64,000 nt of DNA from Escherichia coli O157:H7 (GCF_013167455.1 NZ_CP038328.1); one strand, 5' to 3'. Counted from the first letter of the stretch, positions 18,001-24,000 are shown. Made by a program: the numbers.

Positions 18001-21000
18001 ACATCCGTGGTATGTCATGCCATGCGTGTGGGGCATGCTCGCCTTTCGCTTTCCGTGAAAATCACCCTGCCGGACGGAAGCAGACATCCGATGATTTTTT
18101 ATGCTGATATGAAGGGGGAATGATGCCTTATCAGCCCTTACCACTGGCGCAACTGATCACACAGACACAACAGGATATCAGCCAGCGCCTGCCCGGTTCG
18201 CAGCCGGGCGTGAATGAAACCACCCTGAATGCCATTGCGTATGCACTGGCGGGTCTGTCAGCACAGGAGCATGAACATCTGGCCTGGATCTCCCGGCAGA
18301 TAATTCCGACAGAAGCTGATGAAGCCGAACTCCTGAAACACTGCGCATTCTGGGGTGTCATCCGTAAACCGGCTTCCCGCGCTGACGGACCGGTACAACT
18401 GATGCTGACCACGGATGCAGGGATCACGGAAGGCGTACTCCTTCAGCGAAGCGATGGTGTTGTGTACCGCATCACCGGCTCTGCGACCGGAAAAGCCGGA
18501 ACACTGAATGTTAATGTGGAGGCGGAAAGTGCGGGGCGCGCTGGAAATACCCCGACCGGAACCCGCCTGTCCTTTATCACGCCACAGGCGGGCATCAACC
18601 AGACAGCCACGGTCACCGGCACGGGACTCACCGGTGGTGCGGATGTGGAAACGGTGCCGGAGTTGCTGTCCAGGCTGGTATTCCGGGTACAGAACCCGCC
18701 ATCAGGGGGAACACAGTATGATTTTGAACGCTGGGCACGGGAAGTACCGGGCGTGACGCGGGCATGGTGTAAGCCTGAATGGCCTGAGGCGGGTAGTGTT
18801 GGTGTGACTTTTGTTCAGGATAATAACCCTGACATTTTCCCCGGAGAAGGTGATGTGAAGCGGGTGGCGGATTATATCCGCAGTCATGATGATCCGGCGA
18901 CGGGCCAGCCCGTTGGTCAGCCACTTGGGCCGACAATCAGCGTGTTTAAGCTGACCAATAAGCCGGTGGCGTTTGAGATCAGGATTGTACCCAAAACGCC
19001 GGAAAATCAGGCTGCCGTAAAACAGGCATTAACGGACCTGCTTTATAACGAATCGCGGCCGGGTGGACTTGTATTGCCTTCATCATTCTGGCGGGCTGTT
19101 GCAGGGGTGAAAGGACTGGAGGATTTTGAAGTTCGCAGCCCGCTGAAGTCCGTGATGGCCGGAGATACAGAGTTGCTGACCGTGGGGGAAATCACATGGC
19201 TGTAACCCTGACCCCGCATCAGCGTGCCCTGTTGCAGTTGCTGCCTGACGGGCTGGCATGGGATAAGCGGCCGTCATCCGTTCTTGCGGCTTTGTGCCTG
19301 GGCCTCAGTCATTCCACGGAGCGTGTTTCCTGGACCGGTAACCAGATGCTGGCAGAACGTTTTCCTGATTCATCCCGTCTGCTGCTGGAAGACTGGGAGC
19401 GTTATCTGGGGTTACCGGAATGTGATATGACCGGCGCAACAATTCAGGAGCGTCAGCGTTATGCCGGGAATAAATACCGGATGAAACCCTCTCTTAACCG
19501 TGAATTTTATATCCGGTTTGCGGCAGAGTTTGGTTATGAAATAGATATTCAGCCATCACCGGATTCACAGTGGGTCAGTATTGTCACGATTAACAGTGAA
19601 ACCGGCTACCGGAATATGAATGTGCTGGATGATATTCTCACGCCGCTGCGTATTTATGAAGGCGGTGCGCTGGAATGTATTCTGAACCGTTATAAGCCTG
19701 CATGGCAGACGTTTATTTACGTGTATGCAAACAGCCATGAAGAGGAGACTATTTAATGTTTCATGTTGATAATAATTCCGGCGTGGCGAATATGCCTGCG
19801 CTGGCACCGGCGCAGAGTAATACCACCACCTGGTTTACCGAAGGTGACGGACAAAAAGGTATCAGCTGGATTGGTCAGGACTGGCTGAATATTCTCCAGG
19901 CCGAACTGCTGAATATTCTGGCTGAAGCCAGTATTCAGCCGGATAAGGCGCAGTTAAACCAGCTTACGCTGTCCATTAAAGCCATTATCGCTGCGAATGC
20001 CTTTTCCCGGAAAAACAACCTGAAAGAAATTGCTGATGCCGGTGCGGAAGCCCAGCGTCTTGCCCGTGGTTATCTTGGTCTTGGGGCGCTTGCCACAAAA
20101 AACAGTCTTGGTCCCGGTGACGTTAATGCTCTGGCGAAGGATCAGAACCTTGCCGACCTGGAGAATGCGGGAACCGCCCGTAATAATCTGGATGTTTACA
20201 GCAAAAGCGAAGGTGATAACCGTTACCTGCGCAGGGAGCAGAACGGCGCAGACATTCCGGATAAAGGCGCTTTTATCGATAACGTCGGTTTACGGGAAAC
20301 GGTAAATAAGGCTGCTGATGCCCTGCCATCGGGTGGAACCGCCGTGGCAGCAAACAGACTCGCCACCCCAAGAAATATTAATGGCGTTCCTTTTGACGGA
20401 ACGCAGGATATCAACATCACGTCAGGAATGACGCAGTCAACCGCAGATGGCCGGTATGTACAGAATGTTCAGCTTGGAGCACAGAGCTATCATTCACCCG
20501 GAGGCAATGAAATATCATGGAATTACAGCGCACCTTCCGGTTGTATGCTTTCCGGTATTAACGTGCAGGAAACCGGCTCCCGGTCTGCGGACAATATCGG
20601 TGGGGTCTATTATCGCCCGGTTCAGATTTATATTAATAATGCCTGGAGAACGGTAAGTTCAGTGTAAACCACAGAAAAGGGTGCTGAATGCACCCTCTGA
20701 ATTATTCCGGTTTTTCCGGCCAGGGAATCGCCTGGTAATGCCCCTCACTGGCAATATCATTAAAGTGCATTTCTTTAAGCTGTCGGATATACGCCATCCA
20801 GCGCGTCAGCTGTAATTTATTTTCATCGCTAATCATGTCCAGTTTTAATTCTGTTTTCCAGTCATCCACGGTTTCGTTGGCTTCCTGGAGCAGCGATGAG
20901 CGACGCTTTTCAGCAACCGTCTTCCAGTTTACCGGCACCTTTGATATCAGGCCATCAGAACACTGCCAGTTACCGTCAATATTCACACCTTCCGGCAGTT

Positions 21001-24000
21001 CGTCCACTTCAACAACAGTAAAACCTGCCGGATATAAAGCAGAGACATCTTCAGCAACAGAGCAGATAATACCCGTTACAGGCGAAATACAGAGTTTGTA
21101 TTTCTTTGTGAAAAGCGGGATAGATTCATAAAAATCCCTTCCGTCCTCACTCTGGAAATACTGAACATCCTCACCATAGGGTTTGTGTTCCGGGTAATAT
21201 CGTTTTACGTTAATAAGCTCCATTATTTCACCTTGTTTTTGTTGAAAAGACAAAATCATCATATATTTATTCAGATAATCTGTTTTTTGAACTACTGCAC
21301 TTTTATGCGCTGGAAGCTGTTTTCCACGAACCATCTATCAGAAACTGAACAGGTCGATAATATGCGGTTACCGTTGCATTACCATCACCAGCGACATCAA
21401 GCCCTGTAAGTACGCATCCGTCAGGAACTTCAAAAATATTATATTGCATTCCAATCGTTGACCTTGAACCTCTTCGAATGCTTTGAACATAACGTGAGTC
21501 AGCCACAGACTGCGTCATCCCCGATGTAATATTTATATCCTGCGTTCCGTCAAATGGGACACCATTAATATTTCTTGGAGTGGCGAGTTTATTCGCTGCA
21601 ACAGCCGTTCCGTTCGATGGCAGGGCATTCGCGGCCCTGTTTACAGTATCCCGTAAACCGAGGTTTCAGGGATGCCGTATATCTGCTTTAAAAGGCCTTT
21701 CCACCTCTTTTTAAGGAAGGTAAATACATGCTGATTGGCTATATACGCGTATCAACAAATGACCAGAACACCGGTTTACAAAGAAATGCGCTGGAATGTG
21801 CAGGATGTGAGCAGATTTTTGAAGACAAAATGAGTGGTAAAACGACACAGCGGCCGGGACTGAAGCGGGCACTGAAGAAACTAAAACCCGGTGACACACT
21901 GATGGTCTGGAAACTGGACAGGCTGGGGCGCAGTATGCGCCACCTTGTTGCGCTGACAGATGAATTACAGCAACAGGGGATAAATTTTCGTAGTCTTACT
22001 GACAACATTGATACGTCAACCCCCATGGGGCGCTTCTTTTTTCACATAATGGGTGCGCTGGCAGAAATGGAGCGTGAATTAATTGTCGAACGGACACGGG
22101 CTGGTCTTGCAGCTGCCCGTGAAAGGGGACGAACCGGCGGCAGACCCCGTCGTCTCACGCAGGAACAATACGAGCAGGTCGGGCGTTTACTGGCCGGGGG
22201 TGTCAGTCGAAGACAGGTGGCACTTATTTTTGATATCGGCCTTTCAACCCTTTATCGTTATTATCCTGCGAGCGTTTCGGAAAAATAAGACGCTCCCTTT
22301 GTTGGGCCTTTACTGAATTAACGCAAAATGGCGTTTATCGGTCTGTGGATATGATAATTCTGTTTATTCAGGAACAGGATGAATATTATGACGTCCAAAT
22401 GGGTTCAACTATCATCAATGCCCGGAAACTTTACCGTTAAAGTTTCCGGTGGTACAGCGGCATTTCTTGAGGCTCCCTTTCCTCCTGCTGAAACGAAAGG
22501 AGGAATGACATTTGCTGACTGTCTCATCAGTTTTAATACACAGGATTGCCTGTGGGTAAGGCCAGTATCCGGTGATCCGAACGTGGAAATTACCGGAGCG
22601 GGTATTGGTGCTGTCATTCCGTTAAGTGCTGATGTTGCCGGTACTACTGAACCGTCAGACTGGGATAATGCAGAAACACATACCCGTCCGGCAGGAAATG
22701 AAACGGCTTCCAGCTCCCCTTCCTGGTATTACGTGGTGGTTCTTGCTGGTCAGTCAAACGGTATGGCTTACGGTGAAGGTCTGCCACTGCCGGAGACATA
22801 TGACCGCCCCGAACCGCGTATTATGCAGTTAGCCCGTCGCAGTACAGTCACGCCGGGAGGTAAAGCCTGTCAGTATAACGACATCATTCTGGCCGACCAC
22901 TGTCTGCATGATGTGCAGGATATGAGTGGAAAAAATCACCCGAAAGCGGATGTGGCTAAAGGGCAATATGGCACCGTGGGTCAGGGGCTTCACATTGCCA
23001 AAAAACTGCTGCCGTTTATTCCGGCAGATGCGGGGATTCTGCTGGTTCCCTGCTGCCGTGGTGGTTCTGCATTCACGGCGGGTGCTGACGGCACGTACAG
23101 TGACAGCACGGGTGCTTCAGAGGACTCAGCCCGCTGGGGTGTGGATAAGCCGCTGTATAAGGACTTAATCAGCCGGACAAAAGCGGCACTGGCGAAGAAC
23201 CCGAAAAACCGCCTGCTTGCTGTGGTGTGGATGCAGGGCGAGTTTGATATTGATGCGAAGCCGACGGAGCATTCTGCGCTGTTTCTGGCGATGGTGGAAA
23301 AATTCCGCGCAGACCTGGCTGAACAGGCGGAACAGTGTACCGGTGGCAGTGCTGCTGGCGTTCCGTGGATTTGTGGTGATACCACGTATTTCTGGAAACA
23401 GAAAAACGAACAGGCATACCAGGCAATCTATGACGGCTACAAAAATAAAACAGATAAAAACATTCATTTCGTCCCATTAATGACAGATGAAAATGGCGCG
23501 AATGTACCCACCAACAATCCGGCAGAAGACCCGGATATTGAATCCATTGGTTATTACGGCTCAACGTGGCGTAACAGTGCCGCCACCTGGACATCTACGG
23601 ACCGGGCCAGCCATTTCAGTTCATGGGCACGTCGTGGGATTATTTCCGACCGTCTGGCCACGGCAGTTCTGACTCATGCGGGGCGAACCACAGTAAAAGC
23701 CGATGTTCCATCTTCTGAAACTGAAGCACCAGTGCCGTCACCTTCAGAAACTGAAGCAGTAACCACAACACTGCTGTCTTACCGTGTCAGTGAGTCAGAA
23801 GGAAATCTGAAAGCCCAGGGCTGGGAGCCGGCTGGCGGTAAAGCTGAAATTATCAGTGATGCAGGAGGCACAGGTGGTAAGGCAATGAAACTGACCAAGG
23901 AAACAGGTAAATCATCCTGGTATCTGGATCATGATGCCGGTACTGGTGCTGAACTGCTGAAAAATGGTGGTTTAATCAGTTGTCGTTTTAAAGTACCGGG

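Follow-up and report, generated by a model that had tools for sequence, protein, structure and literature searches.

We analysed a stretch of 64,000 nucleotides (nt) from Escherichia coli O157:H7 (GCF_013167455.1, NZ_CP038328.1), referred to here as the window, with positions counted from its first letter on one strand, 5' to 3'. Our subject is a small invertible segment that carries the 3' end of a tail-fibre gene. It is part of a Mu-like prophage and stands in the tail module, where the genes run in the order tape measure, DNA-circularisation protein, baseplate hub, gpV-like spike, gp46, gp47/J, YmfQ/gp48, fibre, invertible segment, gin and com. The fibre gene has a constant part (Sc) and one of two exchangeable C-termini (Sv and Sv'), and only one tail-fibre assembly (chaperone) gene, tfa, accompanies them. 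The features of the locus are as follows.

19756–20667, plus strand: tail-fibre gene as now fused (Sc + Sv), 303 amino acids (aa); full-length match to PHROG 1833, tail fiber (E = 3e-166).
20273–20298: left crossover site (gixL-like), TTATCGATAACG-TC-GGTTTACGGGAA, core TC at 20285–20286; 22 of 26 positions match Mu gixL.
20285–21661: invertible segment, 1,377 bp core to core.
20287–20667, plus strand: Sv, the variable C-terminus in the present orientation, about 126 codons, with no tfa after it on the same strand.
20676–20698: GC-rich hairpin between the Sv and tfa stops, terminator-like mainly for the tfa strand (z = -3.0, minus strand).
20702–21223, minus strand: tfa (Mu U-like), 173 aa; full-length match to PHROG 136 (E = 3e-56).
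21224–21302, minus strand: AT-rich spacer of 79 nt from the Sv' stop to the tfa start; candidate position for a tfa expression signal.
21303–21659, minus strand: Sv', the alternative C-terminus, 118 codons and a stop but no start codon; joins Sc after inversion.
21648–21673: right crossover site (gixR-like), ATCCCGTAAACC-GA-GGTTTCAGGGAT, core GA at 21660–21661; 19 of 26 positions match Mu gixR.
21728–22288, plus strand: Gin-family serine DNA invertase, 186 aa, outside the segment; match to PHROG 125, DNA invertase (E = 6e-95).

A miniature Gin-linked fibre switch

The segment is a miniature and active fibre switch of the Mu G type, linked to a gin gene. The first-pass annotation had described inverted gix-like sites around a 1.37-kb segment, and both sites were recovered at the positions listed above, with match scores counted by hand against the Mu gixL and gixR sequences. 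Their 2-bp cores, TC and GA, are mutually reverse complementary, as required for inversion. The 13-nt sequence TCGGTTTACGGGA, which comprises the inner half-site and the core, occurs exactly twice in the 64 kb, once on each strand, and none of 100 shuffled sequences contained two copies. Each 26-bp site begins one arm of an inverted repeat (20281–20462 and 21484–21665; 182 nt, 79% complementary), the single long inverted repeat reported by the repeat search. The left site lies within the fibre codons ...NVGLRE..., at the same place as the boundary of the Mu G segment in gene S. The invertase encoded outside the segment is 75% identical to both Mu Gin and SfMu Gin over 181 aa and keeps the N-terminal catalytic motif YIRVSTNDQ. 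Similarity to Mu extends to the 5' region of gin, where 20–26 of 30 positions are identical per block over the first 210 nt.

Recombination of the two gix-like sites by the Gin homologue replaces the last ~126 residues of the fibre (Sv) by ~118 others (Sv'). When 20285–21661 was flipped in silico, the 176 constant codons became joined to the minus-strand fragment, giving a 295-aa fibre that is followed, after 79 nt, by tfa. An intact in-frame fibre open reading frame (ORF) exists in both orientations (303 or 295 aa), and each form is annotated in public genomes.

Both orientations occur in complete genomes

Among complete E. coli records, 181 matched the present orientation at a coverage of at least 80%. 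The flipped in-silico construct matched 23 records at the same coverage, 14 of them as single full-length alignments with 99.0–99.3% identity. In both sets the junctions are exact. Strains SMN197SH3, 8479 and Z869 each carry two copies of the prophage in opposite states. In O157:H7 strain 2-6-2, which has the flipped form, the Prokaryotic Genome Annotation Pipeline (PGAP) gives an 888-nt (295-codon) fibre coding sequence and a tfa in the same orientation, and classes the Sv fragment as a pseudogene. Relatives in IMG/VR are likewise found in both orientations. The segment is not fixed in a single orientation and, since both states occur in complete genomes, the switch is active on the time-scale of strain divergence.

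The two states are not equally common. The orientation without a tfa behind the fibre is present in about 89% of lysogens, an excess of ~8:1. Asymmetry of the crossover sites was considered as a cause of the 181:23 bias and rejected, as the exchanged half-sites differ only at the outermost base. A new Mu lysogen keeps the orientation of the fibre that achieved infection, as in the G(+) precedent. By analogy, the 8:1 excess would mean that Sv fibres work on E. coli. Clonal inheritance could be another source of the excess.

Two homologous tips

The fibre is a short homologue of Mu S from which most of the shaft is absent. It consists of the N-terminal ~190 residues of Mu S, one conserved fibre-repeat motif (ATPRNINGVPFDGTQDINIT) and a tip of ~75 residues. 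Residues 1–198 match PDB 5YVQ_A, the Mu tail fibre S (E = 1e-48), and this part is 46% identical to Mu S; tip residues 228–302 correspond to Mu S 434–503. Both tips are homologous to the C-terminal domain of Mu S (residues ~434–504), which is the Tfa-bearing part in PDB 5YVQ, and both are 40–41% identical to Mu S 437–503/504 by BLASTP. Sv and Sv' are paralogous, with about 55% identity over their last ~95 residues. It should also be noted that PGAP names the fibre "hypothetical protein" in several genomes, and that NCBIfam gave no model for either the fibre or Tfa.

Sv carries the motif ...SGI.VQ.TG..SADNIGGVYYRPVQ.YIN.AW..., which is common to SfMu Sv', Rac-SA53 tail1, PhiR44_2 H and fiAA91-ss H. 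All four of these tips are followed by a co-oriented tfa within 1–3 nt. In an alignment of this SADNIGGVYYRPVQ subfamily, no signature was found that separates the tfa-less Sv from the tfa-linked tips. The closest phage relative of Sv is the Rac-SA53 tip that precedes tail2, which is 62–65% identical to Sv and 32% identical to Sv'. The nearest relative of Sv' is the tip of Hafnia phage yong1 (57%).

One assembly gene

The resident Tfa matches PDB 5YVQ_B (Mu U; E = 3e-14), and its C-domain also matches PHROGs 3792, 188 and 105. It has the two-domain Tfa layout, with an N-terminal domain and a conserved C-terminal helical domain. The alignment shows a C-terminal W-P-x-x-P-E shared by the window Tfa, Mu U and U', SfMu gp50 and gp51, P2-type G and Rac-SA53 tail2. 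The gene had been annotated in the first pass as 20702–21262. The gene itself stands, and its start is most likely not 21262 but the ATG at 21223 (MELINVKRYY...), because the PHROG 136 alignment, the PGAP annotation and the homologues all point there.

ORF analysis and profile search bore out the earlier description of a fibre that ends at 20667 with no tfa following, and of a single tfa and an alternative C-terminus both on the minus strand. We built a profile hidden Markov model from the window Tfa, Mu U, Mu U', SfMu gp50 and SfMu gp51 and iterated it on fetched loci. Its sole hit in the window was 20702–21334 (stop to stop), and re-analysis of all six frames of the whole 64 kb revealed no second tfa at E<=10. 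The stop of Sv and the convergent stop of tfa are 34 nt apart. Because the sole tfa follows Sv', late-operon read-through can reach it only in the flipped state.

Tfa binds the fibre through its N-terminal, non-conserved domain (PDB 5YVQ literature, PMC9608196). In the window Tfa, this domain is 66–67% identical to that of Rac-SA53 tail2. The yong1 tip is followed by a Mu-U-like Tfa, whose N-domain is 36% identical to that of the window. An Sv-like tip paired with a TfaA-like Tfa is also found in Pectobacterium phages POP15, POP17 and POP18. From these comparisons, the resident Tfa looks matched to Sv, the tip with which it is not co-oriented, at least as well as to Sv'.

Production of the Mu fibre requires co-expression of TfaMu (PMC8174754), which remains on the fibre tip and helps lipopolysaccharide binding (PMC8174754, PMC10579305). 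The SADNIGGVYYRPVQ subfamily relatives of Sv that were examined are all followed by tfa, and TfaMu is a requirement of the Mu fibre; on these grounds Sv, too, probably needs a Tfa.

The one-tfa layout is conserved

The junction formed by the Sv stop, the hairpin and the tfa stop was found in 207 records, which represent 206 (~4%) of the 5,426 complete E. coli genomes, mostly Shiga toxin-producing E. coli (STEC). The IMG/VR loci with the one-tfa layout fall into two lineages, with Gin 98–100% and 81% identical to that of the window. The second of these lineages of the same phage type (loci L017–L026, Gin 81%) has the same layout and again occurs in both orientations. The allele types (two of Sv, three of Sv' and two of Tfa) are found in shuffled combinations, and the layout stays constant throughout.

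Window: Sv-i, Sv'-a, Tfa-A.
L013: Sv-i, Sv'-b, Tfa-A.
L006 and L016: Sv-i, Sv'-b, Tfa-B.
L017: Sv-ii, Sv'-c, Tfa-B.

Both Tfa types have two partners, Sv'-a and Sv'-b for Tfa-A and Sv'-b and Sv'-c for Tfa-B; judged by these combinations, Tfa is tied to no single tip. The cassettes are mosaic, with Sv alleles of 63–86% DNA identity standing beside tfa genes that are 96–100% identical (L003, L006, L013, L016, L017, L026). From about the tfa start codon onward, L013 has Sv'-b for Sv'-a, and this is its only difference from the window. Because the identities of Sv, Sv' and tfa are mosaic in this way, tips and chaperone are swapped independently by recombination.

We compared selection on the three cassettes using the ratio of nonsynonymous to synonymous substitution rates (dN/dS). 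The tfa-less Sv alleles have a dN/dS of 0.08–0.12 at dS 0.5–1.4, and the corresponding values are 0.10–0.27 for Sv' and 0.11–0.25 for tfa, so that constraint on Sv is at least as strong. Part of the purifying selection on Sv may come from other phages, as the cassettes recombine. Taken from comparative sequence, the tfa-less state is functional rather than decaying, because Sv dN/dS is 0.08–0.12, the layout is constant in two lineages and in all allele combinations, and this state is found in ~89% of lysogens.

To place the layout among its relatives, we surveyed IMG/VR loci that encode a Gin homologue and have 3.2 kb or more of sequence upstream, 52 in all. Two convergent tfa genes were present in 22 loci and one in 23, and in the other 7 none was detected. 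The one-tfa loci comprise 16 from the Mu-like family of the window and 7 that are P2-like. A chaperone for each orientation had been taken as the norm for such segments. This holds for Mu and SfMu, which have two tfa genes, but not for the 23 of 52 Gin-linked loci with one; two chaperones are the majority outside the family of the window, not a rule.

Five P2-like loci with one tfa (L032, L039, L048, L056 and L082) have tfa-free alternative tips of unrelated classes (...GFSWRVYAPV, ...GGNGHAGAVILEY). In these loci the tfa-linked tip is tightly coupled to its tfa. The tips of unrelated classes may be truly chaperone-free.

How a single Tfa could serve two tips

Three explanations of the tfa-less orientation have to be weighed, and we rank a Tfa shared by both tips above an Sv tip that is independent of the chaperone, and the latter above a state that is non-productive or relies on a Tfa supplied in trans. 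We tentatively favour the first, at somewhat under an even chance: a single Tfa would serve both tips and be expressed in either orientation from a late, probably activator-dependent signal of its own in the spacer. With the segment as it stands now, late-operon transcription would yield Sc-Sv and end at the central hairpin, and tfa would be transcribed separately from the opposite strand. The signal for tfa would sit in the 51–121-nt spacer before it. Our preference for a shared chaperone arises because SADNIGGVYYRPVQ tips elsewhere are followed by tfa and because the N-domain of the window Tfa is closest to that of Rac-SA53 tail2.

The spacer itself is unusual. It measures 79 nt in the window and 51 and 120–121 nt in the other allele types. 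By contrast, tip and tfa are separated by 1–2 nt in Mu and SfMu, and almost every two-tfa locus has a gap of -4 to +14 nt. Long spacers occur elsewhere only in the P2-like loci L053 and L054, where they measure 72 nt. There, a TGT-N12-ACA dyad is followed 33 nt further on by TATAGT, with the dyad centre at about -55. This combination occurs just once in the 12.5 kb of L053 (0.28 expected from shuffled sequence), and the same geometry of dyad and -10 element is found upstream of the L053 sheath gene. We take it to be the geometry of P2 Ogr-dependent late promoters. The match in the P2-like spacer points to a candidate late promoter for tfa inside the segment, one identified by a post hoc consensus match. 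In L013 and L006, the 57 nt before the tfa ATG are conserved, which a recombination breakpoint explains equally well.

The central hairpin has an equivalent in every allele type. In the present state, the direction of late transcription runs through Sc-Sv into the hairpin, with tfa antisense. Since Mu has an equivalent hairpin between U and U', the hairpin is uninformative on mechanism. No Rfam family was found in the window at gathering thresholds, nor in 20200–21800 at E<=1.

Several results weigh against a shared Tfa expressed from its own signal. A sigma-70 scan gave 6 sites against 5.1 expected, none of them upstream of tfa, and a laxer scan of the three spacer types found weak -10-like hexamers only and no -35 element. 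The Mu C-operator pattern TTAT-N6-ATAA has no match in the phage part of the window. The spacer sequence GATTATCTGAATAA was considered as a C operator and rejected for its N4 spacing and its wrong distance to any -10 element. Words shared between the spacers and the Plys, PI, PP and com-upstream regions reached 10–11 of 12 matches in about the number expected by chance, and the three spacer types could not be aligned to each other. The candidate promoter of the P2-like loci, besides being a post hoc match, shares some of its positions with conserved fibre codons. Mu U and U' have N-domains that are 71% identical though the tips they accompany are only 31% identical, so likeness of the N-domain is an imperfect guide to the partner. 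Finally, the homologous fibre of Alteromonas phage A5 works without its chaperone (PMC10579305).

This last case is also a precedent for the second explanation, in which the Sv fibre folds and works without Tfa and inversion toggles the tip and the presence of Tfa together. We regard this as a serious alternative, somewhat less probable than a shared Tfa. The antisense position of tfa relative to the late operon in the present state, and a promoter search that found none for tfa, fit it, and so do the strong purifying selection on Sv and the predominance of its orientation. Furthermore, across two lineages the tfa-less tips make up one conserved clade, and the tfa-linked tips fall into three types. 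Sv nevertheless bears no sequence signature that distinguishes it from the tfa-linked subfamily, every close relative examined is followed by tfa, and the binding domain of the resident Tfa matches the partner of the closest Sv relative. P2-like loci L032, L039 and L082 offer a parallel, with orphan tips of a different class beside a tightly coupled pair of tip and tfa, whereas the Mu fibre is an example in which TfaMu is required (PMC8174754). The first-pass suggestion that one of the two states is independent of the chaperone is therefore tenable, but it is not the best-supported account, given the tfa-linked tip subfamily and the match of the Tfa N-domain.

A third explanation, which we consider unlikely, takes the present state to be non-productive, an OFF state with fibres misfolded or not made, or else reliant on Tfa from a co-resident prophage; the asymmetry would then be tolerated as a defect in a largely domesticated prophage. 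STEC genomes do contain many lambdoid prophages that bear tfa, some of them close (the N-domain of Rac-SA53 tail2 is 66% identical). Sp18, the O157:H7 prophage to which the element very probably corresponds (see below), is not mitomycin-inducible, however, according to the passages on Sp18 in PMC2669165, so co-induction with helper lambdoid prophages is not built in; the same passages give Sp18 as predicted intact and its DNA as efficiently packaged. In favour of this explanation, the window copy appears to lack its right end, with mom truncated and no attR region, and hence to be under no present selection as a phage. Against it stand an Sv dN/dS of about 0.1 at near-saturated dS and a layout that is constant across lineages and allele shuffles. 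Given the Mu G(+) lysogens, the 8:1 excess also argues for working Sv fibres.

We consider it very improbable that this strain or lineage lost a second tfa, equivalent to Mu U, by a recent accidental deletion. Mu and SfMu do have the order S-U-U'-S', and just 34 nt separate the Sv and tfa stops here. Yet about 206 complete E. coli genomes share the layout, as do IMG/VR loci of both lineages; it is kept even where the Sv, Sv' and tfa alleles have diverged deeply, it recurs as the same design in P2-like phages, and a search of the window at E<=10 gave no tfa remnant. Gene loss had been proposed for this locus, and as a recent accident it is contradicted by these genomes, the second lineage, the shuffled alleles and the dN/dS of 0.08–0.12; an ancient loss of the second tfa is possible.

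The host prophage and neighbouring genes

The 2.7-kb region around the segment is 100% identical to several E. coli genomes and 99.3–99.4% identical to many O157:H7 genomes. Because O157:H7 genomes match at this level, the element is very probably of the type of Sp18, the Mu-like prophage of E. coli O157:H7 Sakai. An "invertible host-specificity region" of Sp18 was noted in 2009 (Asadulghani et al., PMC2669165). Those passages of the report that deal with Sp18 describe it as without mitomycin induction, unlike the lambdoid prophages.

The right end of the window copy (25602–25900) appears to be truncated. The com gene lies at about 25648–25847, a mom-like ORF and the similarity to the related prophage both end at ~25851, and a split host ABC-transporter substrate-binding gene follows the prophage right end at 25900–27192. 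The copy is probably without most of mom and without the right transposition end, and may be immobile.

Upstream of com (25440–25650), the cluster of GATC sites is kept as in Mu Pmom. Beyond the last GATC, this region falls ~34 nt short of its Mu counterpart and has no copy of the C-operator sequence TTATGCCCCAATAA of Mu. To judge from the sequence, mom regulation in this phage type, if there is any, must differ from that of Mu. In a related full-length prophage stretch (L091, E. coli strain 6817), one activator of the Mor/C family is annotated (4658–5083), directly upstream of the lysozyme gene. It aligns well with Mu C, and much better than with Mu Mor.

The product of a gene between gin and com (22379–24427, plus strand) has 682 aa and combines a sialate O-acetylesterase (SASA) domain with a DUF6645 domain. 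Small ORFs at 24574–24756 and 24792–25037 are the counterparts of DUF1378 and DUF826 genes annotated in the related locus L001, from which the window diverges between 23307 and 24778. The esterase module is also present in the second lineage (L017, 684 aa), and we take it to resemble the NanS-p block of Stx-type lambdoid prophages.

At 6221–6245, in the gap before the head protease/scaffold gene and at the position of the Mu PI promoter region, there is a perfect inverted repeat of 7 bp, TAAGGTA-N11-TACCTTA. This palindrome was considered as an activator site and rejected: the window has no second copy of it, and it probably serves as terminator for the gene before it.

Significance and comparison with known systems

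Tips and Tfa chaperones are parts that are swapped to re-target phages and tailocins, under the working assumption that each tip needs its own downstream chaperone. The segment described here is a naturally conserved exception, with two homologous tips and one chaperone gene that is opposed to the fibre in about 89% of lysogens. If a shared Tfa is the correct explanation, it would amount to a design rule in which one Tfa, expressed in either orientation, serves several tips; the P2-like analogues, with their candidate late promoter before tfa, suggest the same. If Sv is independent of Tfa, the segment would supply closely matched dependent and independent tips for mapping the need for a chaperone. 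If Tfa is toggled together with the tip, Sv would be a natural Tfa-independent member of a Tfa-dependent subfamily; Tfa would stay on the virion in the flipped state, so the Tfa "cap" or co-adhesin on the virion would itself be phase-variable.

Our literature search found no discussion of one-tfa invertible segments. While the invertible region of Sp18 has been known since 2009, we found no earlier description, in the portions of text that the search covered, of the one-tfa layout, its conservation, the shuffling of its alleles or the P2-like parallel. The Sp18 passages of PMC2669165 make no mention of a single tfa, an orientation ratio or allele shuffling.

The closest known systems are the Mu G segment and that of SfMu. 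They share with the window the position in the backbone (baseplate genes, fibre, invertible segment, gin, com/mom), and Mu shares a Gin that is 75% identical, a left site at the same place in the fibre gene, a U protein homologous to Tfa and a central hairpin. The differences lie in size and content. The Mu segment is about 3 kb long, compared to 1.38 kb in the window, and Mu S has 504 aa, compared to 303 or 295 aa in the window fibre, where the shaft is missing. The S and S' tips of Mu are 31% identical, whereas those of the window are about 55% identical. Mu and SfMu have two tfa genes (S-U-U'-S'), each 1–2 nt behind its tip, whereas the window has one, behind a 79-nt spacer. Mu has nothing at the place of the SASA/DUF6645 esterase module, which in the window stands between gin and com. 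It encodes both Mor and C, in contrast to the single Mor/C-family activator annotated in the L091 prophage stretch. In the P1 C segment and the e14 P region, a Din-family invertase (Cin and Pin, respectively) likewise flips the 3' end of a tail-fibre gene, and each has one tfa per orientation (U/U' in P1, tfaP/tfaE in e14).

The P2-like loci L053 and L054 share with the window a single tfa inside the segment, co-oriented with one tip, and two or three homologous alternative tips. They have a spacer of ~72 nt before tfa, a Gin homologue about 75% identical and inverted-repeat arms of 200–240 nt. Unlike the window, they have a P2-like backbone, tips of the RPRNxxFNYIVRA family and a Tfa of another class, and their spacer contains the candidate Ogr-type late promoter, of which no equivalent was recognised in the window.

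In carotovoricin Er and other tailocins, as in the window, an invertase exchanges the C-terminus of a fibre, and this alters the target range (Nguyen et al. 2001, via the relevant sections of PMC13195805, bioRxiv 10.1101/2023.05.07.539753). As presented in those sections, carotovoricin Er differs in being a tailocin rather than a phage and in using a different invertase (ein), and a Pantoea tailocin example has an additional chaperone for the second tip. Set beside these systems, the switch in the window is a modest variant of the Mu G paradigm and not a new kind of system.

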